Virus record (IMG/VR): IMGVR_UViG_3300027719_000014
Length of the DNA stretch: 39,455 nucleotides
Reading direction: 5' to 3' (one strand)
Origin: a virus
Shown here: positions 24,454 to 39,455 of the stretch, piece by piece
How the letters are laid out: every line of letters begins with the position of its first letter
How positions within the stretch are numbered: position 1 is the stretch's first letter
Position numbers and translations under genes: made by a program
The notes under the pieces: model-generated
The model's input: the letters and a program-made list of their open reading frames with translations, nothing else
The model's database searches: none
What the model was told of the DNA's origin: nothing

Positions 24454-24465
24454 TGGTTGCCTCCG

Positions 24466-24682: not shown

Positions 24683-24686
24683 AGAA

Positions 24687-25013: not shown

Positions 25014-25058
25014 CCACTAAGCAGCACAATTACTATCAAAAGCTATCAGGAGGAAAAT

Positions 25059-25929: not shown

Positions 25930-26540
25930 AAGTGCTCGTTGCGTGTGAGTACTCTGGAATCGTTCGTGACGCCTTTATCGCGCATGGTCACGACGCTATG
26001 AGTTGCGACCTGCTGCCAACGGAGCGACCCGGCCCACATTACCAGGGTGACGTAATGGACATTATCAACGACGGATGGGATCTGATGATCGGACATCCGC
26101 CATGCACGTATTTGAGTTACGCCGGCATAGCACACTGGAACAAACCCGGCAGACTACAGAAACGCCTTGATGCCTTGAATTTCTTCGCAATGTTGTGGTT
26201 GGCTCCAATAGATAAAATCTGTCTTGAGAATCCGAAAGGATGTGCAAGCCCGACAATCGCAAAATATACGCAGGAAATCCAACCATATTATTTTGGTGAT
26301 AGACAATTCAAAACTACCTGGCTATGGTTGAAAAATTTACCGCCATTGGTTCATTCTCGATGCGATACATTTTTCGAAACTCAAACGCACACAGAGAGGC
26401 CGGAACCAATATCCGTTGATGATACCGAACGGAAGAAAAAGAGATATTTCACGGATGCTCATACGCGCGATCCATACGAACGCGCAAAGACCTTCCCCGG
26501 AATCGCGGAAGCAATGGCGTCTCAATGGTCGCTGCTATGA
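25926..26540 (+). CDS. Short C5-cytosine-methyltransferase-like protein
   Basis: VLVACEYSG (motif I-like), IGHPPCTYLSYAG (PC catalytic motif IV-like) and CLENPKG (ENV-like). At 204 aa it lacks a normal target-recognition domain. Confidence 0.45.
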   Translation: MKVLVACEYSGIVRDAFIAHGHDAMSCDLLPTERPGPHYQGDVMDIINDGWDLMIGHPPCTYLSYAGIAHWNKPGRLQKRLDALNFFAMLWLAPIDKICLENPKGCASPTIAKYTQEIQPYYFGDRQFKTTWLWLKNLPPLVHSRCDTFFETQTHTERPEPISVDDTERKKKRYFTDAHTRDPYERAKTFPGIAEAMASQWSLL

Positions 26541-26638
26541 AATTCACCCGATCCCGCACGACGTGGCCTGAGTACGCGCTATACGCCATGATAATTATTT
26601 ACGTGATTTTTACGGCAGTTTCTATCATTTTCGGATAA
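26537..26638 (+). CDS. Possible small membrane protein (33 aa)
   Basis: ATGA overlap with the upstream gene; hydrophobic YALYAMIIIYVIFTAVSIIF; no independent RBS. Confidence 0.35.
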   Translation: MKFTRSRTTWPEYALYAMIIIYVIFTAVSIIFG

Positions 26639-26642
26639 GGTG

Positions 26643-26651
26643 TGCTATACT
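26643..26651 (+). promoter_or_regulatory. Candidate extended -10 promoter (TGcTATACT)
   Basis: TGn + TATACT in the 136-nt gap upstream of the 26775 methyltransferase gene. Confidence 0.35.
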
Positions 26652-26774
26652 GTAAACGTCACAGGAAGTAGTTTTTTTATCAGCCAATAACCTAATGAAT
26701 TACTCCCGCGCGAACTGCTTTCCTGTGACAAGAAAAGTTGCTGACGCCGGGAGTTTTCTTATCTAAGGATCATT

Positions 26775-27710
26775 ATGACAGCAAAGCTAATGCAAGGTGA
26801 CTGCTTACAAGTTTTGAGGACGCTTGATGATAAATCAGTAAACTGTATCGTCACATCACCGCCATACTACGGACTACGCGATTATGGTGTAGCTGGCCAG
26901 ATCGGACTAGAACCTACACCCGATGAGTACACCGCGAAGCTCGTAGAGGTATTTCACGAGGCAAGGCGGGTACTGCGCTACACCGGTACACTCTGGTTAA
27001 ATTTGGGCGATAGTTATGCTGGTTCGTCTGGGTCAAAAAATGGCAATCTAAAGCCCAAAGACCTTATTGGCATTCCCTGGCGCGTGGCATTCGCATTACA
27101 GGCGGATGGTTTTTATCTGCGCTCTGACATTATTTGGGCGAAACCTAATCCAATGCCGGAAAGCGTAACCGACCGCCCTACAAAAAGCCATGAGTATATT
27201 TTCTTGCTGTCAAAATCGGAGCGGTATTACTACGACAACGAAGCGATAAAAGAGCCGTGCGTTTGGTCCTCAGTTGAACGTCTCGGACAGAATATCGAAA
27301 AACAAAATGGATCGTCGCGTGTTCCAGGTAAATCCAACGGGAATATGAAAGCCGTTTGTTCTGGCAAAGATTGGAATCCGTCAATGGCGGGCGGTGCGGT
27401 TGGAATAGAAAACCGAAAACATCTACCGTATCCGATGGCAAATAAGCGCGACGTATGGACTGTAACCACAAAGCCGTATAAAGAAGCACACTTTGCAACA
27501 TTTCCGCCAGATCTGATTGAGCCGTGTATTCTGGCAGGTTGTCCGGTTGGCGGAACCGTGCTCGACCCATTCAATGGGTCCGGAACGACGGGGGCAGTAT
27601 CCATCAAACATCACCGGAATTACATTGGGATTGAACTTAACGAAAAGTACATAAAGTTATCAGAACGAAGATTCGGCAAAGTACAGCCAACGCTAGTCGA
27701 GGTGGAATAA
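26775..27710 (+). CDS. DNA methyltransferase, N4-cytosine/N6-adenine beta class (N6_N4_Mtase family)
   Basis: IVTSPPYYGLRDYG (SPPY motif IV) is N-terminal and VLDPFNGSGTTG (motif I) is C-terminal, which is the beta-class order. Typical IIWAKPNPMPES block. Confidence 0.8.
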   Translation: MTAKLMQGDCLQVLRTLDDKSVNCIVTSPPYYGLRDYGVAGQIGLEPTPDEYTAKLVEVFHEARRVLRYTGTLWLNLGDSYAGSSGSKNGNLKPKDLIGIPWRVAFALQADGFYLRSDIIWAKPNPMPESVTDRPTKSHEYIFLLSKSERYYYDNEAIKEPCVWSSVERLGQNIEKQNGSSRVPGKSNGNMKAVCSGKDWNPSMAGGAVGIENRKHLPYPMANKRDVWTVTTKPYKEAHFATFPPDLIEPCILAGCPVGGTVLDPFNGSGTTGAVSIKHHRNYIGIELNEKYIKLSERRFGKVQPTLVEVE

Positions 27711-28567
27711 TGGCCGGTTATCGCCAGGTTCACACGCAGTTTTGGAAAGACGAATACATTATCGAACTTGAACCGCTTGAGCGATATTTGTATCTATACT
27801 TCTTCACGAATGAGTTATCATCAATATCCGGAATATACAAACTTCCTCTCAAGGTTATCGTCAATGAAACCGGATTAGAAAAAGTATTTGTGCAGGAAGC
27901 CATAGCCAAGTTTCAGAATGATAAAAAGATAGCTTACGGCGATTCGGTGGTGTGGGTTGTGAACATGGAAAAGTATCACCACAACGCCAGCGACCGGACG
28001 CAAAAGAAAGTGACGGCGGACGTTGATCTTATCTCTGATTGTGGCGTAAAGAGGATGTATCTATACCATAAAGAAACCGGAATATACAGTATCGATACAG
28101 TATCTATACCATGCACACAAAGAGAAAGCAAAAAAGAAATCGAAAGCGAAAAACCATCGCCTGACGGCGAGAAAGTGGAGGATGATTTGAGAACAGCAGA
28201 CGATATTCGCAGAGGCATTGCAGAACGAGCAGCAGCTAAAGCACAGGCCGATCAATTCAAGCCTGCTCAGGTTGCGGACGTATTCGAGAAATGGCCGGTG
28301 GACGTTATCGACTTCTGCCGCGAGTTCTCGCGCATCCGCGGGATCAAGCCAACTGTGTCACAGAAAACAGATTGGATACAGGGTGCGCGTGAGTGCATCG
28401 GGCTGAATATGCGACCGCCGGATATAAACGGTGTGGTGCACTGGATGGTAGACAAAGAGCGCGATTGTCCGCGCCCAGGATCGCTAATCAAAGCGTGGCA
28501 GGAAATATCAGCGAAAAAGCCAGCGCAACCGGCACAACAAGAACGACCGGTACAAAGGAGAGCGTGA
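27710..28567 (+). CDS. Replication initiation / replisome-organiser-like protein
   Basis: The N-terminus (HTQFWKDEYIIELEPLERYLYLYFFTNELSSISGIYKLPLKVI) matches the pattern of phage replisome-organiser/DnaD-like N-domains. It lies upstream of the helicase. Confidence 0.5.
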   Translation: MAGYRQVHTQFWKDEYIIELEPLERYLYLYFFTNELSSISGIYKLPLKVIVNETGLEKVFVQEAIAKFQNDKKIAYGDSVVWVVNMEKYHHNASDRTQKKVTADVDLISDCGVKRMYLYHKETGIYSIDTVSIPCTQRESKKEIESEKPSPDGEKVEDDLRTADDIRRGIAERAAAKAQADQFKPAQVADVFEKWPVDVIDFCREFSRIRGIKPTVSQKTDWIQGARECIGLNMRPPDINGVVHWMVDKERDCPRPGSLIKAWQEISAKKPAQPAQQERPVQRRA

Positions 28568-28568
28568 G

Positions 28569-29405
28569 ATGGGCGAAAAAACTGGAATTGCATGGACAGA
28601 TCACAGCTTCAATCCGTGGGTTGGATGTACTAAAGTATCAGCCGGATGCGCGAATTGCTACGCAGAACGAGAAAACGCCCGTTTTGGGTGGAATAAGAAC
28701 GGTTGGGGCGATAACGCTCCACGCATCCGCACGAGTGAAAACAACTGGAAGCAGCCTATCAAATGGGCGAAGCAAGCGGTCAAGGATGGTGTTACCCGGC
28801 GCGTGTTCTGCGCGAGCCTGGCAGACGTGTTTGATCCGCTCGTACCGGCAGAGTGGCGCACCGATCTGTGGAGCCTGATGCTGGAGTGTGGCGAATGGCA
28901 TGGCGGCCTCGAATGGCTGATCCTGACAAAGCGGCCAGAGAACATATTCCAGATGTTGCCGCTGAATTGGCAAGCGGAACCGCCTGATTACGTGCGTATT
29001 GGCGTGACGGTTGAAAATAAATACTCGCTAAAGCGTGTAGATAAACTATTGTCAGTTTGGCAAGGAAAGAACTTTGTAAGCTACGAGCCAGCGCTTGCGC
29101 GTGTTGATTTTAGTTATCACCTAGACGGTTGCCCAGTAAGTGATAAGGTTTCAGATTTTGGTTCCAGCCACGACTATATTATGGTCCCTACAACCAATCA
29201 AATCGGCTGGATGATCTGTGGTTGCGAAAGCGGCCCAGGCGCTCGACCGATGAATCCTGATTGGGCGCGATCCGTTCTGGATAAGTGTATCGCCGCCGAT
29301 GTTCCTTTCCTGCTAAAACAAATGGTCATTGACGGTAAACTTGTACGAGAGCCAGAGCTTGACGGCAAACAGTGGTTACAATTTCCAAAGGAGAGCGTGA
29401 GATGA
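28569..29405 (+). CDS. Phage Gp37/Gp68 family protein (DUF5131)
   Basis: The hallmark N-terminus TGIAWTDHSFNPWVGCTKVSAGCANCYAE and the later CASLADVFD and GCESGPGARPM blocks. Confidence 0.8.
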   Translation: MGEKTGIAWTDHSFNPWVGCTKVSAGCANCYAERENARFGWNKNGWGDNAPRIRTSENNWKQPIKWAKQAVKDGVTRRVFCASLADVFDPLVPAEWRTDLWSLMLECGEWHGGLEWLILTKRPENIFQMLPLNWQAEPPDYVRIGVTVENKYSLKRVDKLLSVWQGKNFVSYEPALARVDFSYHLDGCPVSDKVSDFGSSHDYIMVPTTNQIGWMICGCESGPGARPMNPDWARSVLDKCIAADVPFLLKQMVIDGKLVREPELDGKQWLQFPKESVR

Positions 29406-29824
29406 AAGTAAAAATTTTGCACACGGATTATCCGGACACGATAAAAATCGGCGATATTAAAGATGCGGTAAGCGATGGTGTCAAATTTTTGGTAGACCAC
29501 GTTTATTCTAATGGTGGTAGAAATGTTCTCATGTTTAATCCGGACGAAGTAGAAGTTTTGTCAGATCAGCAACCCGACCCGCAGCCAGAACCGGCGCAGT
29601 CAGACTGGATGGCGGTGAGCGAATGTCACTATGTAAATTTAGTCTCGAAGCTGACCGTGTGGTTTGGCGAAAGACGGCTTTTATGCGACGACGGCGGTTC
29701 GAAGTTGACACACATTTGCGAGATTTATTCAGATCCAGACGTCACTACTTGCAATACGTGCGCTACCGGCACCTACGCCGACGCATGGGCGAAACTTGTG
29801 GGCCACACATGGGAGGTGAAATAA
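29402..29824 (+). CDS. Hypothetical protein (140 aa)
   Basis: Start at the ATGA overlap (MKVKILH...); no motif recognised. Confidence 0.6.
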   Translation: MKVKILHTDYPDTIKIGDIKDAVSDGVKFLVDHVYSNGGRNVLMFNPDEVEVLSDQQPDPQPEPAQSDWMAVSECHYVNLVSKLTVWFGERRLLCDDGGSKLTHICEIYSDPDVTTCNTCATGTYADAWAKLVGHTWEVK

Positions 29825-30030
29825 TGGCTATAAGTTTTGACGGAATACCGTGTCCTAAGTGCGGCCGCAAAGGATTGCATTTGCGAGCACATCCACACGC
29901 CACTGGTTTCCACGATGTTACAAAGGCAGAGTGTCGTTTTTGCCATGAGATATTTAACAATAACGACACTATGGATCAATACGTGCACAAGGTTCGCCTG
30001 GATGATTGCAACAAAATGGAGGTGAAATGA
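29824..30030 (+). CDS. Small zinc-ribbon protein (68 aa)
   Basis: GGAGGTGAAAT RBS; CPKC...CRFC. Confidence 0.6.
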   Translation: MAISFDGIPCPKCGRKGLHLRAHPHATGFHDVTKAECRFCHEIFNNNDTMDQYVHKVRLDDCNKMEVK

Positions 30031-30398
30031 TGGAACCGAAAGAAATGGGTAGCAAGCAATTAGTGTTTGAGTTTAGAGAGGCTTGTTATGGGCTTGACAT
30101 AACAGAGGATAAAAACATCGAAACCGAACTCCTCTTGCGCCTATCCGAACGCGACGCGCTGAATGCAGAAAACGCCGCGCTGAAAGAGGCTGCGCGGTGG
30201 ATCGACATTGAGGATACGTTGCCGGAATTAGGTCAAGAAGTCTTGGCGTATGGTGAATACGGAATTGATATTTATTTATTCGATGTTGAACATGGAATAT
30301 ATGGTCTTCCGGGGCACTTTATTAAGGGAGATTGCTGCTACTGTGATGATCTTGCATACTGGATGCCTTTACCGCAACCGCCGGAGGTGACGAAATGA
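30027..30398 (+). CDS. DUF551-like phage protein
   Basis: GGAGGTGAAAT RBS. The C-terminal YWMPLPQPPE hallmark and preceding WIDIEDTLPELGQEVLAY are typical of DUF551. Confidence 0.6.
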   Translation: MMEPKEMGSKQLVFEFREACYGLDITEDKNIETELLLRLSERDALNAENAALKEAARWIDIEDTLPELGQEVLAYGEYGIDIYLFDVEHGIYGLPGHFIKGDCCYCDDLAYWMPLPQPPEVTK

Positions 30399-30820
30399 AA
30401 GCTCGATACATTGGCAATCCTAATCTGACCGTTGGCAAGGTGTACGAGGTCAATGTTGATCCAGACAACAAATACCTATACGATTTACTTCCAGACGGCG
30501 AAGGTAATTGTTTGACGTGTGTCTCAATGGATCACTTCGAGATAATTCCAGAGGAGCCAGAATATCACTGGTGCGTGTGCGTCAGCGATGTAATTATTCT
30601 TCCTCAAAACTACAAATATAAAAAAGGCGATGTATTAGAAATAAAATATCCAACTAGCGGTTTTCCGTATATTTACGACGAAAAAGCCAATAGCAAATAT
30701 GGCAATGGTTCTGGCGTGGTATGTTTTATAAACAGCGAGATTTGCAGAAATAGATTCCGTCTCCTGACCGATGCGGAGTACGCCGAACTTGCCGCGCAAC
30801 CTGACGAATGGATGGTGTAG
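30395..30820 (+). CDS. Hypothetical protein (141 aa)
   Basis: ATGA overlap with the upstream gene; GGAGGTGA RBS. Confidence 0.6.
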   Translation: MKARYIGNPNLTVGKVYEVNVDPDNKYLYDLLPDGEGNCLTCVSMDHFEIIPEEPEYHWCVCVSDVIILPQNYKYKKGDVLEIKYPTSGFPYIYDEKANSKYGNGSGVVCFINSEICRNRFRLLTDAEYAELAAQPDEWMV

Positions 30821-30828
30821 CAAAGCGC

Positions 30829-30849
30829 AAACTTAAGACGAATGTCACT
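30829..30849 (+). repeat. 21-nt element aaacttaagacgaatgtcact, inverted copy of 24687-24707
   Basis: Exact match to the reverse complement of 24687-24707. It is followed by TATACT (30850-30855) and lies 50 nt upstream of the 30899 start. Confidence 0.9.
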
Positions 30850-30898
30850 ATACTTTGTCGGCGATAGTCGTCATAATTAAAGTAAATCGGAGGATAAA

Positions 30899-31198
30899 AT
30901 GAGCGAAGAATTGAAACCATGTCCGTTTTGCAACGATGCATTATCTGTAGACTGTGTATGCGAGGGAACCGACTTGATGGCTATGTCGAGAGAGGCATGG
31001 AACACTCGCCCTATTGAAGATGCCTTATCCGCACAAGTTGCAGAACTGACCGCGAAGGTCGAGCGCATGACGGCGCTGCTGAAACGGTTGGAGTGGAATG
31101 GAGATCCCTGGATTGATGACTACTGTTACGTGTGCCACAAGCTGAAATCGTTCGGGCATACCGATGAATGCGAACTCGGAAAGGAACTGAGGCCGTGA
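30899..31198 (+). CDS. Lar-like (restriction-alleviation family) zinc-ribbon protein with C-terminal LEW-CxxC-H..C module
   Basis: GGAGGA RBS. N-terminal ELKPCPFC...REAWNTRP resembles the Lar family signature. C-terminus LKRLEWNGD...CYVCHKLKSFGHTDECELGKEL. Confidence 0.5.
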   Translation: MSEELKPCPFCNDALSVDCVCEGTDLMAMSREAWNTRPIEDALSAQVAELTAKVERMTALLKRLEWNGDPWIDDYCYVCHKLKSFGHTDECELGKELRP

Positions 31199-32535
31199 CC
31201 GACCCCATCCTGCCGCATAACCGCGAGGCCGAAGAATCGCTGCTCGGGTCGATATTGATCGCGCCGGAGAAGATGTCCGAGGTTGTCAATGTTGTATCAG
31301 CGGACGACTTTTTCATTCACAGCAACCGGTACGTTTGGGAATCGTTCTTGCGGCTAAACGACAAGCGGATAAACATTGACATCGTTACCGTCTCAAGCGA
31401 CATGCAGAACAACGGTAAGCTGATGGAATGCGGCGGTCAATCGTACATAACGATGCTTTCAAATCGCGTCCCATCAGCTCTGAATGCGGACGAATATGCT
31501 GGTATAGTGGCTGGTGACGGAATGCGGCGCCGGGTGATTGCAGCTCTTGGCGAAGCGGCTCGGAAAGCCTACGATCTCACGAACGAATTTGACACCGGAG
31601 AGTTAATGACCGAGTTGTCACAGATGCAAAAGGTAACATCGCGCCGGACGTTGCGGGAGAACGTCGAGGAGTGGGAAAAGCAATACGCAGAATGGATACT
31701 CAACCCGCGTGAAATCTCAGGCATATCGACCGGGCTAACTAACCTTGATGCAATGACCGAGGGATTAGAGATTGGTACATCCACCCTGCTCGTTGGGATG
31801 CCAGGATTGGGTAAATCAACTCTTGCGGATCAAATAGCGTTCAGTATGGCAGGCAGGGGCATTCAATCAATAATCTACACCCTGGAAATATCAGATGTAA
31901 TGATCCTGAACCGGTATATTAGTTTGAAGTCGGGCGTCAAGGCATTTTACATCAAACGCGGTCAGGTAAGCTATGATGAACAGGTCAAGATAGAACAGGT
32001 CAAGAATGAATTCCTTGAAGGTAAATATGCACTGGCTATCGTTCCTGATCCAAAACTTACGACACAGAAAATACGCTCCGATATTCTACGGCGTAGGATG
32101 GACGGTGAGGATGTAAAATTTATCGTAGTGGATTACAGCAAGAAACTGCGCGATCCTTCCTTGCGAGGCGAAGAAGAACTCGACCGCCAGGCGCGGGCAA
32201 TAAATAATATCGTTATCATCGCACAGGAATTGAAGGTAGCGGCACTCATTGTCCACACGCTGAACAAAAATAAAGACGTTGCCGGGCGCATGGACGCGCA
32301 GTATGATCCAGACAACATCCTGATTATGACATCCGCCGGCGACGATCCACGAGATAAAAGCCGGGTAAAATTGGAGGCAGAAAAACTGCGAGACGTATCT
32401 ACCGCTACTTTTTGCGCGTATCTGAAACACGATCCAGACTTCCCGTTTTTTCACGAGGACGAGGCGAAGTCATCCGGTGTCGAGCAGACGCGGCAGATAT
32501 TGGGCAGGACGTACCAACCAGAGATGGAGGATTGA
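31195..32535 (+). CDS. dnaB: Replicative DNA helicase, DnaB-like
   Basis: The N-terminus LPHNREAEESLLGSILI...DFF...NRYVWESF is the DnaB N-domain signature. Walker A GMPGLGKST. GTGA overlap start at 31195. Confidence 0.85.
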   Translation: MTDPILPHNREAEESLLGSILIAPEKMSEVVNVVSADDFFIHSNRYVWESFLRLNDKRINIDIVTVSSDMQNNGKLMECGGQSYITMLSNRVPSALNADEYAGIVAGDGMRRRVIAALGEAARKAYDLTNEFDTGELMTELSQMQKVTSRRTLRENVEEWEKQYAEWILNPREISGISTGLTNLDAMTEGLEIGTSTLLVGMPGLGKSTLADQIAFSMAGRGIQSIIYTLEISDVMILNRYISLKSGVKAFYIKRGQVSYDEQVKIEQVKNEFLEGKYALAIVPDPKLTTQKIRSDILRRRMDGEDVKFIVVDYSKKLRDPSLRGEEELDRQARAINNIVIIAQELKVAALIVHTLNKNKDVAGRMDAQYDPDNILIMTSAGDDPRDKSRVKLEAEKLRDVSTATFCAYLKHDPDFPFFHEDEAKSSGVEQTRQILGRTYQPEMED

Positions 32536-32538
32536 CGA

Positions 32539-32715
32539 ATGAAATTGCTTATAGGAATGCTCGGTATTGTTGTCATCGTTGCCGCGTTTTGGCTGTGGTC
32601 AATGGGTCGAATGGCCGCGCGTGGAGATGAGATGAATCGCAAGATACAAGATCAGCTTGACATGGAGCGCGAGGAAGATCCCTACTACGTGGAGATAAAA
32701 GACGATGAGAGCTAA
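32539..32715 (+). CDS. Possible small membrane protein (58 aa)
   Basis: GGAGGA RBS; N-terminal TM segment LLIGMLGIVVIVAAFWLW and an acidic tail; below the track cut-off. Confidence 0.5.
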   Translation: MKLLIGMLGIVVIVAAFWLWSMGRMAARGDEMNRKIQDQLDMEREEDPYYVEIKDDES

Positions 32716-33019
32716 ACGCAAGGATGGAAACCAGCGAGACATCGAAGAGGCGCTGACCAAAGCCGGGTACTACTGGTTTGACACGCACGATCTTGGCAAT
32801 GGCTTTCCAGATATGGTGGCGGTCAGTAAGTCGTGCGTCACCGTCCTATTCGAGGTGAAGATGCCTGGAGAAAAACTGACACCGGCGGAAATACGCTTCT
32901 TTGAAAATTTTACCGGTGCGCTTTATATCGTAAATTGCGCAGATCAAGCACTAAAAATACTATCAAAGTATGACGCCGGTGTGGTTTACAACACACTTGC
33001 AGATGCGTTCGGAATATAA
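32705..33019 (+). CDS. VRR-NUC / PD-(D/E)xK nuclease (Holliday-junction-resolvase-like)
   Basis: GFPDMVAV...VLFEVKMPGEKLTPAEIRFF matches the PD...E-x-K catalytic pattern and the VRR-NUC layout. Confidence 0.6.
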   Translation: MRAKRKDGNQRDIEEALTKAGYYWFDTHDLGNGFPDMVAVSKSCVTVLFEVKMPGEKLTPAEIRFFENFTGALYIVNCADQALKILSKYDAGVVYNTLADAFGI

Positions 33020-33029
33020 CGGAGTAGCC

Positions 33030-33476
33030 ATGATTGCCACATCGAAATTTGAAGAAGATTACGCGGATGTCGTAGAGGTGCGCAGAGGGAATGACCCGCT
33101 TGATGTTGATTTTTCGTGCGCAACTTTTGAAATTGTACGCGACGTGTTGTCTCAGGACGACGGCGGCTTTCGGCCAGGGTCGCGGTTCAAAAAGGATCAC
33201 ATGCGCCGGATGCTTATGGACAAATCAATTGACCCACGGGCCATGGTCAGGAACCTAAGAACGGGCGAGGTAAAACAGGTAGTACAATTCAAGCTGACAA
33301 CGCCAGACCGCAACTATGACAAGAAAAAAATAGCTGACGAAGAAATACCAAAGATGCAGGCGCTATTCAGGAGCGGATTTACTCAGGCAAGAATTGCGCG
33401 GATGTACGGGATCAGTTCCGCGCAAACCAGCAGAATCATAAACGGAAAAAGAGGAGCATCATGTATCAGCAATTAA
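33030..33476 (+). CDS. Hypothetical protein with C-terminal helix-turn-helix
   Basis: GGAG RBS before the ATG at 33030. C-terminus LFRSGFTQARIARMYGISSAQTSRIINGKR. Confidence 0.55.
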   Translation: MIATSKFEEDYADVVEVRRGNDPLDVDFSCATFEIVRDVLSQDDGGFRPGSRFKKDHMRRMLMDKSIDPRAMVRNLRTGEVKQVVQFKLTTPDRNYDKKKIADEEIPKMQALFRSGFTQARIARMYGISSAQTSRIINGKRGASCISN

Positions 33477-33859
33477 TTTTAGTAGGAAATTTGGGCAAAG
33501 ACCCGCAAATGTCTTACACTCCATCCGGCCAGGCCGTCACATCGTTTTCTATGGCAACCAGCCGCAAGTACACGAAGGATAACTCGACTGTAGAAGAGAC
33601 TACATGGTTTCGCGTGTCAGTATGGGGCAAACAGGCCGAGGCGTGCAATACCTACCTGCGCAAGGGCAGTAAGGTGCTGGTAGAAGGACGCCTGCAAGCT
33701 GACCCCGCTACTCACGGCCCGCGCACGTTCACGAGGAAGGATGGAACTACCGGAGCTACATTCGAGGTGACGGCGGAAACGGTGCGGTTCCTGGATTCGA
33801 AGTTGTCGGGAGAGACACAGGCGCAGGTTACGGCTGGCGACGATGAGATTCCATTCTGA
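33461..33859 (+). CDS. ssb: Single-stranded DNA-binding protein
   Basis: OB-fold signature LILVGNLGKDPQMSYTPSGQAVTSFSMA...TWFRVSVWGKQAE...YLRKGSKVLVEGRL and an acidic C-terminal tip DDEIPF. Confidence 0.9.
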   Translation: MYQQLILVGNLGKDPQMSYTPSGQAVTSFSMATSRKYTKDNSTVEETTWFRVSVWGKQAEACNTYLRKGSKVLVEGRLQADPATHGPRTFTRKDGTTGATFEVTAETVRFLDSKLSGETQAQVTAGDDEIPF

Positions 33860-33862
33860 TAG

Positions 33863-33890
33863 TTGACAAGTAGCGAACAGTCGCTATAAT
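33863..33890 (+). promoter_or_regulatory. Consensus sigma70 promoter TTGACA-N16-TATAAT
   Basis: Both hexamers are perfect. It sits 3 nt after the ssb stop and about 100 nt upstream of the first tRNA. Confidence 0.7.
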
Positions 33891-33994
33891 GAAATTATGT
33901 ATGCTAGTTTCATCACCAGCGCCCTGGCTCGGTAAACAGGTAAAAATTGCGACAGGGTAATGTCTTCGGGAACACGAGGCTAACCGAAGAACAA

Positions 33995-34067
33995 GCCTCA
34001 TTAGCTCAACGGACAGAGCGAATCGGTTCTAACGATAGTGTTGGTGGTTCGAATCCACTATGAGGCT
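33995..34067 (+). tRNA. tRNA-Arg (anticodon UCU)
   Basis: Hand-folded cloverleaf: acceptor GCCTCAT/ATGAGGC, D arm GCTC-AACGGACA-GAGC, anticodon loop GTTCTAA, T arm GGTGG-TTCGAAT-CCACT. There is a 27:43 A-A mismatch and no encoded CCA. Confidence 0.85.
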
Positions 34068-34070
34068 CAT

Positions 34071-34143
34071 GCCACATTAGCTCATCTGGTAGAGCGGAGA
34101 TTTTGTAAATCTATGGTGGATTGTTCGAGACAATCATGTGGCT
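34071..34143 (+). tRNA. tRNA-Thr (anticodon UGU)
   Basis: Acceptor GCCACAT/ATGTGGC, D arm GCTC-ATCTGGTA-GAGC, anticodon loop TTTGTAA, T arm GATTG-TTCGAGA-CAATC. No encoded CCA. Confidence 0.85.
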
Positions 34144-34621
34144 CACGCCGTGGTGCAAGTAGCACAGCCTATACGGTAGGCGGATGAGCGTTTGAATCGC
34201 TCAGGCTAATGAACATATCGAAAATTGAACAGTTGATCGGCGGCGTGGACGGGGACACGCGGATAGGCCCTCAAAATTACGCTTGCTTTGGTCTACTGCG
34301 ATCCAGAGGGACAGCAAACCAATAAACCGGGTTCAAACCCCGGCCGATCAAATAGAATATAATGCCGAAGCTATGAAGCGCGTAGTCGCGTGGAGCACGG
34401 CTTATAGATTAGGCTGGTTACGTGGAGCGCGTTGGTATGCCGTTCAATCCGGTTCGCCATGGTAGCAGTGACCTGAGCCAGCCTTCCATGCGGGTGGAAG
34501 GTAAGATATCTTACCAGACCCATAATCTGGAATAACACAGTCTGATTCTGTGACCCGCAACATTACTGGCGAAGCCTCTACTCGACTCTGAGAACGGCTC
34601 AACTGTCGCCAGTCGTACAGT
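34144..34621 (+). ncRNA. Candidate large structured non-coding RNA (or array of tRNA-like/degenerate tRNA modules) co-transcribed with the tRNAs
   Basis: Three further T-arm-like hairpins (34186-34202, 34327-34343, 34439-34453). An 8-bp acceptor-like closure at 34233-34240/34344-34351. Anticodon-arm-sized hairpins at 34514-34530 and 34536-34552, and a long hairpin at 34565-34613. No RBS-preceded ORF. The region is bounded by a consensus promoter and a strong terminator. Confidence 0.45.
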
Positions 34622-34663
34622 AAAACAGCTTTCCAGTTGATCGCGGAAGGCTGTTTTATTTTT
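34622..34663 (+). terminator. Strong rho-independent terminator (13-bp stem incl. one G-U, 10-nt loop, T-rich tail)
   Basis: aaaacagctttcc-agttgatcgc-ggaaggctgtttt followed by atttttg. Confidence 0.8.
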
Positions 34664-34757
34664 GCAATATGATGCAACAACTTATCAACTTTGTTTACTT
34701 CTCGCAACGCAATGTAAACTAAGTAGCCACTTTTGTATACTTTCGTGGATTTGCTAC

Positions 34758-34786
34758 TTGTAATGCAGTGTGTTGCGTGATACAAT
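34758..34786 (+). promoter_or_regulatory. Candidate promoter TTGTAA-N17-(TGa)TACAAT
   Basis: Extended -10 TGaTACAAT at 34778-34786 and a -35-like hexamer at 34758-34763, 50 nt upstream of the 34837 gene. Confidence 0.45.
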
Positions 34787-34836
34787 CCTCGTAGAGCGCA
34801 TGGGCGCATAATCTAATTTAATCCATTGGAGGGTAT

Positions 34837-35160
34837 ATGACTGATTTTGTTCTAACTCCTGAATTACTCGCGGCTATCGTCGGTATCGTATTGTCTCTTG
34901 CATTCTCGTACATCCCTAATCTGAATACGGCTTTTGCCGGGCTTACCGCCGAAGTCAAGCGCCTTGTTATGGCCGGGCTATTGCTTGCTGTGGCCGGAAT
35001 GGTAATGGCTCTCGGATGCTACGGGATCTTGTCGTCGGGGATTGCGTGCGACCAAGGCGGCGCTATCCAGCTCGTGTCTATTTTTATTTCAGCGATGATC
35101 GCCAACCAGGGCGCATACGCACTGACCCCTCAGACTCAAGCTGTAAAAGATGCGAAGTAA
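34837..35160 (+). CDS. Membrane protein with about 3 TM segments (holin-like candidate)
   Basis: GGAGGG RBS; hydrophobic stretches LLAAIVGIVLSLAFSYI, LVMAGLLLAVAGMVMALGCYGIL and IQLVSIFISAMIA; 107 aa. Confidence 0.5.
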   Translation: MTDFVLTPELLAAIVGIVLSLAFSYIPNLNTAFAGLTAEVKRLVMAGLLLAVAGMVMALGCYGILSSGIACDQGGAIQLVSIFISAMIANQGAYALTPQTQAVKDAK

Positions 35161-35163
35161 ACT

Positions 35164-35535
35164 ATGGCGGGCATATCAGAACGCTCCGCAGCAGAACGTG
35201 TAACAAATGCCGATTTAGCCCTTCTTTTGGGGGGGATTGACACGCGCCTCACAGTTATCGAAGGGACGACCGGCCGGCTTGACAAAGCTATCAACGGCAA
35301 CGGAAAGCCGGGCTTATTGGAAGATTACAGATGCTTACAGGTTGACTTCAATAATCACATCAAAGAGGCAAAAGATCAAAAGGAACGCGCAGACGCTGAT
35401 AAAAAGACCGCCATTGACAAAAGGGAGAAATTCTCTGCCAGGACTTGGGCGATTGTAATGGCGGTTATCGGCGCGTTCATCACGCAGACGGTCGGCCTCG
35501 TAATACTGTTTATCAGGACTGGTGCAATCAAGTGA
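35164..35535 (+). CDS. Coiled-coil protein with C-terminal TM anchor (XhlA-like / lysis-accessory candidate)
   Basis: N-terminal coiled region, central NGNGKPGLLED, C-terminal WAIVMAVIGAFITQTVGLVILFI. Confidence 0.45.
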   Translation: MAGISERSAAERVTNADLALLLGGIDTRLTVIEGTTGRLDKAINGNGKPGLLEDYRCLQVDFNNHIKEAKDQKERADADKKTAIDKREKFSARTWAIVMAVIGAFITQTVGLVILFIRTGAIK

Positions 35536-36758
35536 GCGAATCTATTACATGGACTAACTGCCAGGTAAGACTTGGCGAACTCAAAGAATGGGAAGGCAAC
35601 CCGGCCGAGATTGGCAAAGAAGCAGCCGGTCGCCTTGTTGAATCATTCAATGAGTTCGGGCAGGTCCAGGCGCTGGCGATCGATCCTGATAACCGGCTGA
35701 TAGATGGACACCAGCGATTATCCGTATGGCTGCATAAATTCGGCGCTGATATGCTCGTGGATTGCCGCCAGTCATCTCGTTTGCTTACCGACAAGGAACG
35801 CCAGAAGATAGCAGTATACCTGCGCTCCGCCGCGGTCGGTCGATACAATTGGGATATTATTGCAAATTGGGATACCGGCGATCTGAAGGAATGGGGATTT
35901 GATAGCCATACCCTGGATGATTGGAATACAGATGTTCGTGCGCTGTCGAATTTCTTGGAAAGTAGCAAGCCAGATCAGGCAGACGCAGAACCGCAAATTG
36001 ACCGCGCCGCTGAACTCAATGAGAAGTGGCAGGTAAAGACTGGCGACTTATGGCAGATAGGCGAACACCGGTTATTGTGTGGGGATTCGACTGTTTTGAG
36101 CGACGTTGAAAAATTAATATTCGGAAATAAAGTATTCGTATTTAGCGATCCCACTTATGGAATTGACGTTGTTTCTGGATCAAAGGTTGGTGGAGCCGCC
36201 TCCACCAAATTCGGCAAAGTTGGGGTGGAAAATTGGGTAGATTCACATGAGTATCCAGAGATTATCGGTGATGATAGCACGGATACGGCGCGTAATTTCT
36301 ATGCTGTTTGTACCTCATTGAGAATAACTGATTTTATTCTATGGGGCGGAAATTACTTCACTGATTTTCTTAGTCCGTCTCGTTGTTGGCTGGTGTGGGA
36401 TAAGCAAAACACTGGGAACTTCGCCGATGTTGAATTGGCGTGGACTTCATTCGATAAAAGCGCAAAGAAATACGAGTGGTTATGGAATGGGCTAAGCAGA
36501 GAAGGTAATAGGAAAGACGAGCTGACTAGCCGTGTTCATCCTACCCAAAAACCCGTTGGACTTACTCAAGAAATAATGAATGACTTTCCAGCCGATATTT
36601 ATTATGATGGCTTTCTCGGTAGCGGTTCTTTTATGGTTGCCGCTCACAATGTAGGCAAGAAGATGTATGGCATTGAAAAAAGCGTTGACTACTGCGCTGT
36701 CATACTCGAACGCATGGCGACTGCGTTTCCAGAATTAGAAATCACAAAGATACTGTGA
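35532..36758 (+). CDS. ParB-like nuclease domain fused to an N6_N4-family DNA methyltransferase
   Basis: GTGA overlap start. N-terminal ALAIDPDNRLIDGHQRL (ParB/Srx-like). C-terminal VFSDPTYG (DPPY-like), VHPTQKPVGL and DGFLGSGSFMVAAHNVGKKMYGIEKS (motif I). Confidence 0.75.
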   Translation: MSESITWTNCQVRLGELKEWEGNPAEIGKEAAGRLVESFNEFGQVQALAIDPDNRLIDGHQRLSVWLHKFGADMLVDCRQSSRLLTDKERQKIAVYLRSAAVGRYNWDIIANWDTGDLKEWGFDSHTLDDWNTDVRALSNFLESSKPDQADAEPQIDRAAELNEKWQVKTGDLWQIGEHRLLCGDSTVLSDVEKLIFGNKVFVFSDPTYGIDVVSGSKVGGAASTKFGKVGVENWVDSHEYPEIIGDDSTDTARNFYAVCTSLRITDFILWGGNYFTDFLSPSRCWLVWDKQNTGNFADVELAWTSFDKSAKKYEWLWNGLSREGNRKDELTSRVHPTQKPVGLTQEIMNDFPADIYYDGFLGSGSFMVAAHNVGKKMYGIEKSVDYCAVILERMATAFPELEITKIL

Positions 36759-36774
36759 ATTAACAGAGATAAAA

Positions 36775-37113
36775 ATGGCAAACCCAAGTTCACTCAAACC
36801 ATTCGTAAAAGGCGACCCTCGCATAAATCGCAAGGGGCGCCCTAAGACGTTTGACGCGCTTCGGGAACTGGCTCAGTCTATTGCGCACGAAGAAGCACAG
36901 AATGCCGGAAAGCCTATTGTCCTGAATGGACACGTGGTGACGGTTACAGAAGCTATCCTGCGCTCATGGGCGTCAAGCAAAGATCCACGGCTGCAACAGG
37001 CTTTTGTTTCGTACGCGTTCGGGAAGCCGAAAGATGAAATAGATGCATACGTTCACGGTCAATTGACGTGGGGAGAATTTATCAAGGGGAACAATGACAC
37101 TCCCAACCCCTAA
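36775..37113 (+). CDS. Small terminase subunit candidate (DUF5681-like N-terminus)
   Basis: NPSSLKPFVKGDPRINRKGRPK resembles the conserved N-terminus of small proteins that precede TerL; it overlaps the TerL start. Confidence 0.5.
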   Translation: MANPSSLKPFVKGDPRINRKGRPKTFDALRELAQSIAHEEAQNAGKPIVLNGHVVTVTEAILRSWASSKDPRLQQAFVSYAFGKPKDEIDAYVHGQLTWGEFIKGNNDTPNP

Positions 37114-38479
37114 AGAAGTTCTGTTTGACCCAGAGAAGTTTTCTGAACACTTCTTGTATATTCTTGACAAGGATAAGAGCTTAGTACACTTCCGATGGAA
37201 CCGGGCGCAGCGCCATTTTTCATCACATCGAACCGGTCGGGATCTGATATTGAAAGCGCGACAACTTGGATTTAGCACACTTGTTCAGGGCGAAATGTTC
37301 CGGAGAGAAGTAACGTCAACCAGGGCGGCAATGACACTGGCGCACGATGACGAGACAACGCAGAAGCTGCGCCGCATGGCTGACCGGTTTTGGGAAAACT
37401 GTAAATTTGGTAACGTGCAACCACTGCGAAAGTATAGCAACGCTACGCTGACGACATACCCTGAATTCGACAGCGAGGCAACTATTGCAACTGCCGGGAA
37501 TAAAGAGGCCGGGCGCGGTGGAACTTACACAGACTTTCACGGTAGCGAGGTTGCGTTCTGGAAAGATGCCGAGAAGTTGGTAGCTGGGGCAATGCAAGGC
37601 GGTAGCCCTGATGTCGTGCTAGAATCCACTCCGAATGGTACGCAAGGCTGGTTCTACGAAAAGTGCATGGAGGCGCTTGACGGTAACAGTATCTGGACGC
37701 TGCATTTTTACCCGTGGTGGTGGGATGATGGTTACAGAACGGCATTAGAACCGGGCGAAGAAATACAGTACACCGATGAAGAAAGCGTACTAGTAAAAAA
37801 GCATAACTTGCAACCCGATCAAATCAAGTGGCGCAGGAACAAGAGACGGGAACTCGGGCGATTGTTTATTCAGGAATACCCCGAAGATCCCCGCACTTGT
37901 TTTCTCACTTCTGGCAATAGTTATTTTGGTGACTTGTCCATTCCGCTTGAGGACGTATTCACGGCTCCGCTTGATGCAACCTATCAGGAAGGGCACCAAT
38001 ACCGCGCCGGGTTAGACTTTGGAAAGCAGCAAGATTATCTTTCATTATCCGTGTTTGACTTTACAGACCGCGTACAGGTGGACTTGTTGCACATCAATCA
38101 ATTAGCGTGGGGAGAAATGCGGCGGCGCTGTCACGAGAAGTATAATCAATGGCAATTGCCGTACATTGTGGCAGAATCAAACTCAATGGGCGATACCAAC
38201 ATTGAGGCAATGATTGAAATGGGAATGAGCATATTTCCATTCAACACCACGAATGAAAGCAAGGCGCTTGTTTGCCAGAACCTACATGAAGGATTGGACA
38301 CAGGATTCAAATTGCAACCATACGAAGTACAGCGGCACGAATTCCAAACATTTGTAAGTACTCAATTACCGTCCGGATTGTGGCGATACGCAGCCGAAGG
38401 AACTGGGCATGACGATACCGTTATCAGCGGAGCGCTGGCTTATGATGCGCCGAATCACAATCCGTGGCTATTTATGTAA
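37094..38479 (+). CDS. terL: Terminase large subunit
   Basis: ATPase motifs ILKARQLGFSTL (Walker A-like) and TDFHGSEVAFW (Walker B-like). C-terminal RNase-H-like nuclease blocks AGLDFGKQQDY and GHDDTVISGALA. 461 aa, directly upstream of portal. Confidence 0.85.
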   Translation: MTLPTPKEVLFDPEKFSEHFLYILDKDKSLVHFRWNRAQRHFSSHRTGRDLILKARQLGFSTLVQGEMFRREVTSTRAAMTLAHDDETTQKLRRMADRFWENCKFGNVQPLRKYSNATLTTYPEFDSEATIATAGNKEAGRGGTYTDFHGSEVAFWKDAEKLVAGAMQGGSPDVVLESTPNGTQGWFYEKCMEALDGNSIWTLHFYPWWWDDGYRTALEPGEEIQYTDEESVLVKKHNLQPDQIKWRRNKRRELGRLFIQEYPEDPRTCFLTSGNSYFGDLSIPLEDVFTAPLDATYQEGHQYRAGLDFGKQQDYLSLSVFDFTDRVQVDLLHINQLAWGEMRRRCHEKYNQWQLPYIVAESNSMGDTNIEAMIEMGMSIFPFNTTNESKALVCQNLHEGLDTGFKLQPYEVQRHEFQTFVSTQLPSGLWRYAAEGTGHDDTVISGALAYDAPNHNPWLFM

Positions 38480-38489
38480 AGGTGAAACC

Positions 38490-39455
38490 ATGAGCAAACG
38501 AGACTATAAACTGATCAAGATCGACGGAGAAAAAGCAGTTACCCTGTGGGGTGATGAAGGCTGGGTAACGAGCGACCAGCAGCCGAACCGTGATAGCGCC
38601 ACATTCCTGGCTGGGCGCGTTGCTATCGTATTCAGGGCAATGGATGTGCGTGCAAATGCCGTAGCCTCCATCCCATTTGACATCATCCGCATGTCTGATG
38701 GCAGCGTGTATGACACGTCGACCGACTACAAAAACCAACTGGGCTTTCTTCCAAACCCCGGCGAGCTGTTCAAGAAATTGGAAATGTCGCTCACCCTGTA
38801 CGGAAAAGCATACATCTATGACAGCGAGAACGCTCGCAACTATCCTGGCGTGTTCCGCTACATTCTGCCGACCACCACCACCTACGACGCGCAAAAGGAT
38901 TTATTTACTCGCAGGGTTGAAGCAACTGGTGGGGCGTCGCTTGACAAGCCGTACCAGCCGGCCGCCATGCGCGACGGCAAACTGACGAAGGGCGAGAAAA
39001 TCGTTTTTGTGTGGCAACCCGATCCAGACGTTGAACACGGTCCGCCGATGAAGTCACCAGGTGGAGCCGCGCTTGCTGCCATGGGCGTACTGTTCAATCT
39101 GGATTACTCGGTTGCGCGTTTCTTCAAAAACGGTATGCTTCACACGCAGGTATTTGCCGTCAAGGGCGGTATGTCGCCAGAGCAAAAGGGCGAATTTGAA
39201 GAGCGAATGAACACGCTCCGCGGCGTGTGGAATTCTTTCAAGGGCCTGTTCATCAACGCTGAAGAATTTAAACCGGTTGATCTTGGCGGAGGCATCGAAG
39301 AACTCGAGAACGTTCCGCTTACAAAAGACAAGCGCGAGGATGTGGCAATTGCTCTTGGCGTTCCGATGACGAAGCTGTTTACCGAATCCGCCGCAGGTCT
39401 CGGCGGCGCGGGCGTGTCGTCTGGTGATGACCGTCGCCTGATCAGTGATACTGCC
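38490..39455 (+). CDS. Portal protein, N-terminal 322 codons (runs off the window end and continues at base 128 in the circular molecule)
   Basis: ATG at 38490, 11 nt after the terminase stop. The frame is open to the window end and in frame with 128..727 after removing the 127-bp repeat, giving a 521-aa product. Its position directly after TerL and its size are typical of HK97/SPP1-type portals. Confidence 0.8.
   Translation, partial: MSKRDYKLIKIDGEKAVTLWGDEGWVTSDQQPNRDSATFLAGRVAIVFRAMDVRANAVASIPFDIIRMSDGSVYDTSTDYKNQLGFLPNPGELFKKLEMSLTLYGKAYIYDSENARNYPGVFRYILPTTTTYDAQKDLFTRRVEATGGASLDKPYQPAAMRDGKLTKGEKIVFVWQPDPDVEHGPPMKSPGGAALAAMGVLFNLDYSVARFFKNGMLHTQVFAVKGGMSPEQKGEFEERMNTLRGVWNSFKGLFINAEEFKPVDLGGGIEELENVPLTKDKREDVAIALGVPMTKLFTESAAGLGGAGVSSGDDRRLISDTA
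39329..39455. repeat. Second copy of the 127-bp terminal direct repeat
   Basis: Identical to bases 1-127. Confidence 0.95.

Follow-up and report, generated by a model that had tools for sequence, protein, structure and literature searches.

A putative tRNA operon of an uncultivated phage with two canonical tRNAs and a distal stretch of tRNA-like modules

The question raised by the locus considered here is what a phage may transcribe from a region that is framed by its own promoter and terminator, begins with two evident tRNA genes and continues with some 480 nt of sequence rich in hairpins that recall tRNA arms. The region occupies positions 33863-34663 of the window, by which we mean the whole analysed stretch of 39,455 nucleotides (IMG/VR virus record IMGVR_UViG_3300027719_000014). 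An initial annotation, made from the letters of the DNA, offered three explanations for the distal part: a large ornate RNA comparable to GOLLD or ROOL, an array of tRNA mimics acting against anticodon nucleases, or simply decayed tRNA genes. Here, we addressed which of these explanations is compatible with the modular composition of the unit, with the behavior of its elements in tRNA and RNA family searches, and with its distribution among related phages.

Borders and flanks of the unit

The unit opens with a sigma-70 promoter TTGACA-16-TATAAT (33863-33890, plus strand, as for all features below unless stated otherwise), which coincides with the consensus in 12 of 12 positions just as had been claimed; from 19000 to 38900 only one further 12/12 site occurs. 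The perfect palindrome TAGCGA-ACAG-TCGCTA (33871-33886) within the promoter spacer is unique in the window and may represent an operator. From the inferred transcription start a leader of about 98 nt (33897-33994) extends to the first tRNA, possessing neither special structure (fold z = -0.23) nor any tRNA-like call by ARAGORN at relaxed thresholds. The two genes that follow, tRNA-Arg(UCU) (33995-34068) and tRNA-Thr(UGU) (34071-34144), had been described as clean and indeed are canonical, both being called by ARAGORN at default settings and scoring 54.8 and 51.6 bits, respectively, with the Rfam tRNA model RF00005, whose gathering threshold is 29 bits. The former shares 89% identity over 57 nt with the tRNA-Arg(UCU) of another phage (L108), and CCA is encoded in neither of them. 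The phage makes heavy use of the codons that the two tRNAs read, AGA/AGG and ACA: in the ORFs of the window AGA and AGG together account for 23% of Arg codons and ACA for 27% of Thr codons (ATA constitutes 22% of Ile codons), and codon compensation is a plausible role for both.

At the opposite end of the unit, a 49-nt bulged hairpin (34565-34613, hairpin G) separates the last tRNA-like module, F, from the terminator and was recovered in the form proposed for it earlier (fold z = -2.76). The intrinsic terminator (34622-34663) also agrees with the initial annotation, comprising a stem of 13 pairs, one of them G-U, a 10-nt loop and the T-run of the tail TTTTATTTTT, with a folding energy of -20.7 kcal/mol and z = -6.0; it was missed by the consensus scan because its loop exceeds the limit of 8 nt adopted there. 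The element CAGCCTTCC (34479-34487, inverted repeat I12) nearly repeats the 5′ arm of the terminator and is perfectly complementary to the 3′ arm, and forcing the long-range helix 34479-34487/34645-34653 costs only 1.6 kcal/mol. This element could act as an alternative closing helix, or else it could be a recombination scar. Its assignment as an antiterminator was considered and rejected: the partner is the same 3′ arm that stands next to the U-run, and such pairing therefore would not prevent termination.

The unit lies between replication genes (DnaB, VRR-NUC, an HTH protein and SSB) on the upstream side and the late operon (small membrane protein, methyltransferase and terminase) on the downstream one. 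Its boundary is marked by a promoter-like site lying already outside the RNA unit, TTGTAA-17-TACAAT with an extended TG (34758-34786), which precedes the first late gene (34837-35160); the sequence GCTACTTG at this late promoter is retained at the equivalent place in L026 and L027. The first of them, whose counterpart of that late gene is the closest one (73% identity), displays at the same place a promoter, a canonical tRNA-Met(CAU), a structured hairpin domain, a terminator and a late promoter, including a closed structured domain at the position corresponding to hairpin G. It is the single exception among the relatives anchored by proteins (see below), as its layout is common with that of the window unit while the sequence is different. 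The terminator hairpin behind the tRNA-Met of L026 matches the DUF3800-VIII motif (RF03075; Weinberg et al. 2017, PMC5737381) with 48.3 bits at a cut-off of 40.2. The outer stem of this hairpin resembles the stem of the window terminator, but the latter is devoid of the inner hairpin and gives no match to the family at E<=10.

Tandem tRNA-like modules

At default stringency ARAGORN calls only the two canonical tRNAs. In the relaxed search suggested in the initial annotation, three further cloverleaves, designated C, E and F, appear below the default threshold in tandem on the same strand within 476 nt, and in shuffled controls the mean number of calls is 0.2, with three or more found in 2 of 500. 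F becomes visible at 94% of the threshold, where 1.7 false positives per Mb occur, C at 88% (27 per Mb) and E at 82% (266 per Mb). Rfam RF00005 reported none of the modules C-F at E<=10, regardless of whether queries of 951, 83 or 133 nt were used.

In module C (34145-34210; called at thresholds of 88% or lower, fold z = -1.95), the D hairpin is short, the anticodon hairpin carries the loop AUACGGU, and the T arm, GAGCG-TTTGAAT-CGCTC (34186-34202), is perfect and present as claimed. The module has no acceptor stem, and the conserved bases engaged in tertiary contacts are missing (the T loop reads UUUGAAU and there is no GG). The loop core, U-ACG-G, is that of phage tRNA-Arg(ACG) genes, and by its sequence module C is a probable relic of such a gene. 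The picture is less favorable for module E (34389-34462), a very weak cloverleaf full of mismatches with the T-loop-like TTCAATC. The third T-loop element that had been singled out there does not rise above chance level, having a fold z of +0.06 and an ARAGORN call at thresholds of 82% or below, and the module may be a heavily decayed tRNA or nothing. The same applies to the 10-mer repeat CAGTTGATCG, proposed as a feature of note and dropped here: its occurrence fits chance, as about 0.3 are expected in 800 nt by our own estimate.

Module D (34233-34352) is a tRNA-like element of 119 nt. Both structural claims made for it hold, namely the 8-bp helix 34233-34240/34344-34351 (inverted repeat I10) and the canonical T arm CCGGG-TTCAAAC-CCCGG (34327-34343). 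Together with the D arm GCGTG-GACGGGGA-CACGC they form perfect stems (8/8 for the acceptor-like one, 5/5 and 5/5 for the others), supplemented by a D-loop GG and the canonical T loop TTCAAAC. The middle part of 67 nt is poor in structure, and the fold centroid retains only the acceptor, D and T parts. None of the Rfam models matches this module; an identity of 12 nt with the anticodon arm of a phage tRNA-Pro(UGG) (E = 0.06) is a weak hint. Interpretation of D as a spliced tRNA-Pro(UGG) was tried, and deletion of two inserts of about 20 nt did produce a default ARAGORN call, a result voided by the control, where some double deletion within shuffled D middles led to a tRNA call in 99 of 100 cases. 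The idea of a mini-tmRNA, with GACGGGGA as the D-loop-like part and an ORF ending with TAA right before the T arm, was ruled out as well: neither ARAGORN nor Rfam finds a tmRNA in D, no tag-like peptide is encoded, and the G3-U70 pair is absent, the acceptor carrying G3-C70. The resemblance of D to tmRNA and YrlA consists in the “top half” built of acceptor and T arm and in the insert, unlike tRNA, that replaces the anticodon arm, but the tmRNA search of ARAGORN and the Rfam models of tmRNA and YrlA detect nothing in it. Across the whole unit no tmRNA is called by ARAGORN, relaxed settings included, or matched by Rfam; the sole YrlA (RF02553) match, with 26 bits against a cut-off of 69, falls where the two real tRNAs adjoin, and no Rsr-like protein was encountered among the 39 ORFs scanned.

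Module F (34489-34561) is a complete non-canonical cloverleaf, putatively of the tRNA-Met(CAU) class. What had been described as two separate mimics of anticodon arms (34514-34552) turned out to be the anticodon arm and the T arm of this single structure, which was overlooked because two of its arms were read as independent hairpins. Within its 73 nt, F combines a perfect 7-bp acceptor TGCGGGT/ACCCGCA, the discriminator A and the anticodon loop CCCAUAA (C33); 21 of 21 pairs are standard with no G-U among them, and it is the only module having the geometry of a true cloverleaf (7-bp acceptor, 5-bp/7-nt anticodon and T arms, about 73 nt). The cloverleaf is both the MFE and the centroid structure, its z value of -3.98 is better than those of both real tRNAs, no other call of the 94% level exists in the window, and the mitochondrial mode of ARAGORN recognizes F by default. 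Unpaired positions behave differently from the paired ones. The bases expected for tertiary contacts are replaced (G8, a D loop lacking GG, C33 and the T loop UCUGAUU), so that in the alignment to the tRNA-Met model F is devoid of U8, G18/G19, U33, U55 and C56, and it departs from the class consensus at about 8 of the 20 unpaired positions that are normally conserved. The Rfam tRNA model does not detect this module even at E<=10 with an 83-nt query. From the preservation of all pairs on the background of many changes at normally conserved unpaired positions, we infer that the fold of F is under selection.

The class assignment was approached with the pattern TGCGG..CNCATAA..CCGCAACAT, derived from module F and the tRNA of L026, which in IMG/VR matched 19 sites, 18 of them in tRNA-Met(CAT) genes called by ARAGORN. 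With a model built from these 18 phage genes, F itself being excluded, module F scores 54.4 bits (E = 4e-11), although the genes were retrieved by a pattern originating from F; a non-tRNA control carrying only the pattern reaches 8.6 bits. Of the 18 training sequences, 17 exceed the value of 54.4 bits, which is comparable to the scores of unrelated canonical tRNAs from the same arrays. The link between F and tRNA-Met is thus partly circular because the comparison set was collected with the F-derived pattern, and this also concerns the shared ends UGCGG.../...CCGCA, the discriminator A and the CAU within a CNCAUAA loop. The class as a whole (18 IMG/VR genes from L092-L110, plus that of L026) is distinguished by U1-A72 and has an acceptor resembling that of bacterial initiator tRNA-fMet; 5 of 7 acceptor pairs and A73 are common to F and the E. 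coli initiator tRNA. Besides the ends, the discriminator and the anticodon, F agrees with the class in length and cloverleaf shape, and one class member, L093, likewise is undetected by the Rfam tRNA model. C33 also occurs in the class, namely in two of the 18 genes (L093 and L097), which are otherwise ordinary. Unlike the class, F has no GG in the D loop, UCUGAUU in place of UUCRANY, G8 instead of U8, and an anticodon stem without GGG/CCC.

Decay, mimicry or a single large RNA

We consider it probable, at about 0.6, that the 800 bases form a phage tRNA operon, a self-contained cassette of the “moron” type, whose distal 480 nt or so are made up of tRNA-derived modules at varied stages of decay or divergence. 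Host RNA polymerase would start at the consensus sigma-70 promoter and stop at the intrinsic terminator, giving a primary transcript of about 770 nt. As follows from general tRNA biology, RNase P together with 3′ trimming and CCA-adding enzymes of the host would then release tRNA-Arg(UCU) and tRNA-Thr(UGU). Module F would be released as a stable tRNA-like molecule, which could be a Met-type tRNA of unorthodox make or else one that does not decode, and modules C and E would be spacer debris. The fallback explanations of the initial annotation, decayed tRNA genes or tRNA mimics, come closer to the evidence than its main proposal, in view of the three relaxed ARAGORN calls, the Arg(ACG)-type loop of C and the tRNA-Met signature of F.

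A stricter version, in which everything behind tRNA-Thr is non-functional debris, C-F are decaying pseudogenes and only the two canonical tRNAs matter, is possible and to be taken seriously, the odds being nevertheless against it. The lack of an acceptor stem in C, the chance level of E, the unstructured middle of D, as well as the lack of U8, G18/G19, U33, U55 and C56 in F and its invisibility to the Rfam tRNA model agree with it, and the region is missing from all related phages examined, as dispensable sequence would be. What this version hardly accommodates is the contrast inside module F, where every pair is standard without a single G-U in spite of the changes at about 8 of 20 conserved unpaired positions: neutral decay at this rate should break some of the stems, and the chance of none being broken is below 1e-3 by a rough estimate. 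Module F, moreover, is the most stably folded of all modules, and D retains its three perfect stems and canonical T loop.

A further reading takes these modules as deliberate imitations. It is unlikely, in our judgment, that F and possibly D are selected non-decoding look-alikes, cut out by RNase P and CCA-tailed, which counter host defences that cleave initiator or other tRNAs, whether as decoys or as substitutes resistant to the nucleases; in that event the adaptive changes of F would be C33 in its loop, the alteration of the anticodon stem and the re-wiring of the elbow. A broader formulation, where D and F, perhaps with C, are stable tRNA-shaped mimics that do not decode and that soak up or resist tRNA-targeting nucleases of host defence, such as VapC-type initiator-tRNA nucleases or anticodon nucleases, or sequester tRNA-binding enzymes, is improbable. 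Many tRNA-binding enzymes read the acceptor, the T arm and the D arm, and it is exactly these elements that D holds. F combines the retained signature of tRNA-Met (acceptor, A73 and CAU) with an altered anticodon loop and stem, and C33 recurs in the two phage genes mentioned above. Anticodon-loop changes by which phage tRNAs evade anticodon nucleases have been documented (PMC10264068), as has neutralization of PARIS and retron effectors by phage tRNAs (PMC11464382, PMC11555353). No defence or counter-defence gene, however, was found adjoining the unit, and the broken modules C and E that accompany D and F fit decay at least as well.

The distal 480 nt as one large ornate RNA, analogous to GOLLD or ROOL and bearing T-loop motifs only incidentally, is a reading already largely refuted and very improbable. 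It draws on the phage context, the non-coding, highly structured appearance and the nearby tRNA genes, which GOLLD and ROOL often adjoin in phages (PMC5737381 and general knowledge), on the fact that a distal stretch of 521 nt folds more stably than its shuffled versions (z = -3.6), and on the long-range helix 34479-34487/34645-34653 that could enclose F and hairpin G. Fold stability, however, is accounted for by separate local modules of tRNA size, and long-range pairs of the whole-region MFE structure are missing from the centroid. Rfam searches over the whole window at the gathering threshold and over 33850-34800 at E<=10 gave no match to GOLLD, ROOL or another large RNA, tRNA being the only significant family at E<=10. 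The search for homologues pointed in the same direction, since at least 20 related phages lack the region, an outcome that the initial annotation itself had listed as speaking against its proposal. Relatives found through SSB, a 107-aa late protein and TerL in IMG/VR, GTDB and a collection of 5.8 billion proteins carry identical copies or have no such RNA; over the unit L001-L004 and L112 are 100% identical. With no homologous region in relatives and no variation among natural copies, a single multi-domain fold backed by covariation was not obtained. BLAST of the unit to phages in GenBank, to plasmids and to E. coli genomes returned nothing beyond generic tRNA-Arg similarity, IMG/VR pattern scans (the 3′ end of D, the loops of F, the 3′ end of tRNA-Arg, and tRNA-Thr) revealed no homologues, and the pattern of the Arg-Thr junction had no match in JGI metagenomes. 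A further scan with the D 3′ end gave one chance match inside a coding region.

Least credible of all is a small protein encoded by the region: a 38-aa ORF (34209-34325) and an antisense one of 121 aa (34444-34809), the latter annotated by automatic gene callers on some contigs, do exist, and the weak ribosome-binding site of the former corrects the earlier statement that no ORF is preceded by such a site, but a good site is found for neither, the 38-aa ORF overlaps the acceptor and D arm of module D, the antisense ORF has no PHROG family and no relatives among 1.84 billion representative proteins (a self-match and one spurious weak match), and no conserved protein was found on either strand of the unit.

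Relation to phage tRNA clusters and implications

The tRNA region of phage T4 comprises eight tRNAs and two functionally uncharacterized stable RNAs, C and D. With this cluster and those of the IMG/VR contigs L092-L110 the window unit shares head-to-tail tRNAs on a single strand within one precursor, a set that includes Arg(UCU), Thr(UGU) and a tRNA with the CAU anticodon, additional stable RNA sequence of non-tRNA nature in the transcript, and presumed processing by host RNase P. It differs from them in that just two of about six modules are canonical, in having its own consensus promoter and terminator, and in its setting, a 39-kb phage and not a large lytic one, where it immediately precedes the late operon.

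The main value of the analysis lies in clarification: what appeared to be an exotic ornate RNA is probably a phage tRNA cassette whose genes have decayed or diverged to different degrees. A perfectly paired cloverleaf of 73 nt with the tRNA-Met signature escapes Rfam/Infernal and default ARAGORN, and a similarly invisible tRNA-Met is present in at least one other uncultivated phage contig (L093). Since standard finders miss both, phage tRNAs are probably undercounted at present. In viral metagenomes, U1-A72 appears to be a common feature of phage tRNA-Met genes, sometimes combined with C33, and this may bear on the ways in which phages cope with defences cutting initiator tRNA. If F or D are functional mimics, they would provide a further case of the interplay between phage tRNAs and tRNA nucleases.

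Position and borders of the transcription unit

The segment 33863-34663 is a tRNA operon of the phage: its promoter and terminator enclose two canonical tRNAs and, behind these, tRNA-derived modules that are degenerate or non-canonical. It is placed between the replication module, with genes for DnaB (31168-32535), a VRR-NUC protein (32705-33019), an HTH protein and SSB (33461-33859), and the late operon, which begins with a 107-aa membrane protein (34837-35160) followed by a ParB-methyltransferase (35445-36758) and the large terminase TerL (37094-38479). The ~39-kb phage genome comes from metagenomes only (JGI 3300004154 and 3300004151, Logan SRR10466941 and SRR10466901), and no close relative was found among GenBank phages. 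No integrase was detected among the window ORFs scanned; four DNA-methyltransferase-like proteins are encoded (25369-25929, 25926-26540, 26775-27710 and the ParB fusion).

The borders and leading genes proposed in the initial annotation are correct: the promoter TTGACA-16-TATAAT (33863-33890) matches consensus at 12/12 positions, the terminator hairpin (34622-34657) is followed by TTTTATTTTT (-20.7 kcal/mol, fold z = -6.0), ARAGORN and Rfam concur on tRNA-Arg(UCU) (33995-34068, 54.8 bits) and tRNA-Thr(UGU) (34071-34144, 51.6 bits), and every hairpin it named is present in the sequence where it had been placed. In the window ORFs AGA and AGG account for 23% of Arg codons, ACA for 27% of Thr codons and ATA for 22% of Ile codons. 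A 121-aa antisense ORF called in the region by some pipelines belongs to no PHROG family; against 1.84 billion representative proteins it matched itself and otherwise gave a single weak, spurious hit. A 38-aa sense ORF, MNISKIEQLIGGVDGDTRIGPQNYACFGLLRSRGTANQ (34209-34325), has a weak ribosome-binding site and overlaps module D (see below), its TAA stop lying directly 5′ of the T arm of D.

Several potential control signals accompany the unit. The 8-mer CAAGTAGC, a candidate regulator binding site, has only three copies in the whole 39-kb window, and these fall within a single kilobase: just past the -35 element of the tRNA promoter (33867), in module C (34156) and, inverted on the minus strand, at the -35 element of the late promoter (34753); GCTACTTG is retained at the late promoters of two relatives (L026 and L027). 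Just upstream of module F, CAGCCTTCC (34479-34487) is a near-copy of the terminator 5′ arm (34626-34634) and can pair perfectly with the 3′ arm (34645-34653); the long-range helix so formed, which would enclose modules F and G, is less stable than the local terminator by only 1.6 kcal/mol. Elsewhere, on the minus strand, a second perfect 12/12 sigma-70 promoter (TTGACA-17-TATAAT, 20469-20441) precedes a ~115-nt leader, the two together spanning 20469-20316. The leader has no Rfam match; in it, CTTAGGGATT and GAATCCCTAAG form a long-range helix, and there is a hairpin of terminator type with a U-run, both immediately upstream of the RBS and start codon ATG for a Cys-rich protein of 108 aa (19989-20315). 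The leader may act by attenuation or antitermination.

tRNA-like modules of the distal part

The leading proposal for the ~480 nt behind tRNA-Thr, a large ornate RNA resembling GOLLD or ROOL, is not supported and was rejected: although a 521-nt stretch folds more stably than its shuffles (z = -3.6), the long-range pairs of its MFE structure are missing from the centroid, which retains local hairpins only, and at E<=10 Rfam gave no match of any weight to GOLLD, ROOL, tmRNA, RNase P or a riboswitch over 33850-34800. At gathering thresholds the 4227 Rfam families returned only the two tRNAs, and a YrlA match (26 bits, cut-off 69) fell on the junction of these.

ARAGORN at lowered thresholds, a check suggested earlier, adds three tandem cloverleaves on the same strand: "Arg(ACG)" (34138-34210, module C), "Leu(GAG)" (34389-34462, module E) and "Met(CAT)" (34489-34561, module F). 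Among 500 dinucleotide shuffles of a 476-nt stretch the mean was 0.2 calls, with at least three calls in 2 of 500. At the threshold where each module first appears, 2.3 Mb of shuffled window sequence yielded 1.7 (F), 27 (C) and 266 (E) false positives per Mb, which makes the call clearly significant for F and moderately so for C, but not for E taken alone. With a fold z of +0.06, E does not rise above chance.

Module F forms one cloverleaf, so that the two hairpins initially read as separate anticodon-arm mimics are real but constitute its anticodon arm (CCAGA-CCCATAA-TCTGG) and T arm (CACAG-TCTGATT-CTGTG). Its acceptor stem is a perfect 7 bp (TGCGGGT/ACCCGCA) followed by discriminator A, and in isolation the cloverleaf is both MFE and centroid (z = -3.98, better than both genuine tRNAs). 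Five of the seven acceptor pairs and A73 are common to the E. coli initiator tRNA, whose sequence was verified. F departs from canonical tRNA at the elbow (G8, D loop without GG, T loop UCUGAUU instead of UUCRANY) and at the U-turn (C33), because of which the Rfam tRNA model, run on 83 nt, leaves it unreported even at E<=10.

L026, which of all relatives is closest to the window in the first late gene (73% protein identity), carries at the equivalent place a canonical tRNA-Met(CAU) (47.5 bits; its anticodon stem has three G-C pairs), which has 5′ TGCGG and 3′ CCGCA-A-CAT in common with F. A gapped pattern built from these common features matched 19 sites in IMG/VR, 18 of them ARAGORN-called tRNA-Met(CAT) genes, mostly in phage tRNA arrays; two of the 18 (L093, L097) have the C33 loop CCCATAA of F. 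A covariance model of these 18 sequences, F excluded, matches F over its full length with zero non-standard pairs at 54.4 bits (E = 4e-11), a score to be read knowing that the set was retrieved using F's own ends, that 17 of 18 members score higher and that unrelated canonical tRNAs of the same arrays score similarly; the single non-tRNA pattern match reached 8.6 bits. Of 20 unpaired positions that are normally conserved, F differs at about 8, yet all of its 21 pairs are standard, from which we infer that selection has maintained its secondary structure.

In IMG/VR loci L092-L110, phage tRNA-Met(CAU) genes have U1 paired to A72 and an initiator-like acceptor UGCGGGG, and such genes seem to be common in viral metagenomes. 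In L093, ARAGORN calls tRNA-Met and tRNA-Trp and the Rfam tRNA model reports neither at E<=5, the tRNA-Trp giving only a 20.6-bit tRNA-Sec match.

Module D (34233-34352) combines an 8-bp acceptor-like helix abutting a canonical T arm (TTCAAAC) with a D arm whose loop includes GG; we estimate a probability of ~1e-3 that a fixed site has, by chance, a perfect 8-bp partner close enough to pair with. The 67-nt middle is poorly structured and open in the centroid. D matches no Rfam family; a 12-nt identity to a phage tRNA-Pro(UGG) anticodon arm reaches only E = 0.06, and "splicing" D into tRNA-Pro proved uninformative once controls were applied. Module C (34145-34210) looks like a tRNA relic, having three well-formed hairpins, one of them a perfect T arm, and the loop core U-ACG-G of phage tRNA-Arg(ACG) genes; it has no acceptor stem, the ARAGORN version using the 3′ strand of tRNA-Thr. 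Module G (34565-34613) folds stably into a hairpin with bulges (z = -2.8).

Distribution among related phages

Natural copies are all clonal: L001-L004 are 100% identical to the window across 6.0-8.4 kb each, and L112 has 1 SNP in 3.6 kb and none inside the unit. Conservation in related phages was not borne out, since the relatives examined through SSB (30-64% identity), the late protein (57-65%) and TerL (47-68%, 27 loci and one Gammaproteobacteria MAG) have neither tRNAs nor similarity to the region, L026 alone departing from this, and only in part. In most late-gene relatives the first late gene is preceded by just ~100 nt; the unit is thus a lineage-specific insertion at the early/late boundary.

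In L026 the position of G is taken by a closed structured domain, after which come CGTA and a related terminator. CAGCCTTCC may be the insertion scar of an F-G-terminator module, which would match this layout. The terminator hairpin behind the L026 tRNA-Met (2256-2319) matches Rfam DUF3800-VIII (48.3 bits, threshold 40.2), a motif described by Weinberg et al. (2017) whose function is unknown; the 2.9-kb contig shows no DUF3800 gene. In the relatives L029 and L031 a strong promoter directly precedes the first late gene, about 190 nt before it, with a terminator hairpin no more than tens of bases further on, an arrangement that suggests antitermination control of late genes in the phage group.

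Putative processing and role

By general tRNA biology, host RNase P would cut the ~770-nt transcript at each acceptor/T-arm stack, 3′ ends would be trimmed and, since no CCA is encoded, CCA would be added to the released tRNAs. The expected products are tRNA-Arg, tRNA-Thr, an F RNA of 73 nt and possibly a D RNA of 119 nt, with C and E presumably discarded as spacers. Evasion of tRNA-targeting defences by phage tRNAs is documented (PMC10264068, PMC11464382, PMC11555353). F itself may decode AUG, serve in initiation, or act as a nuclease-resistant variant or a decoy. The remaining interest of the operon lies in F, and less so in D, as well-formed tRNA look-alikes missed by standard tools.
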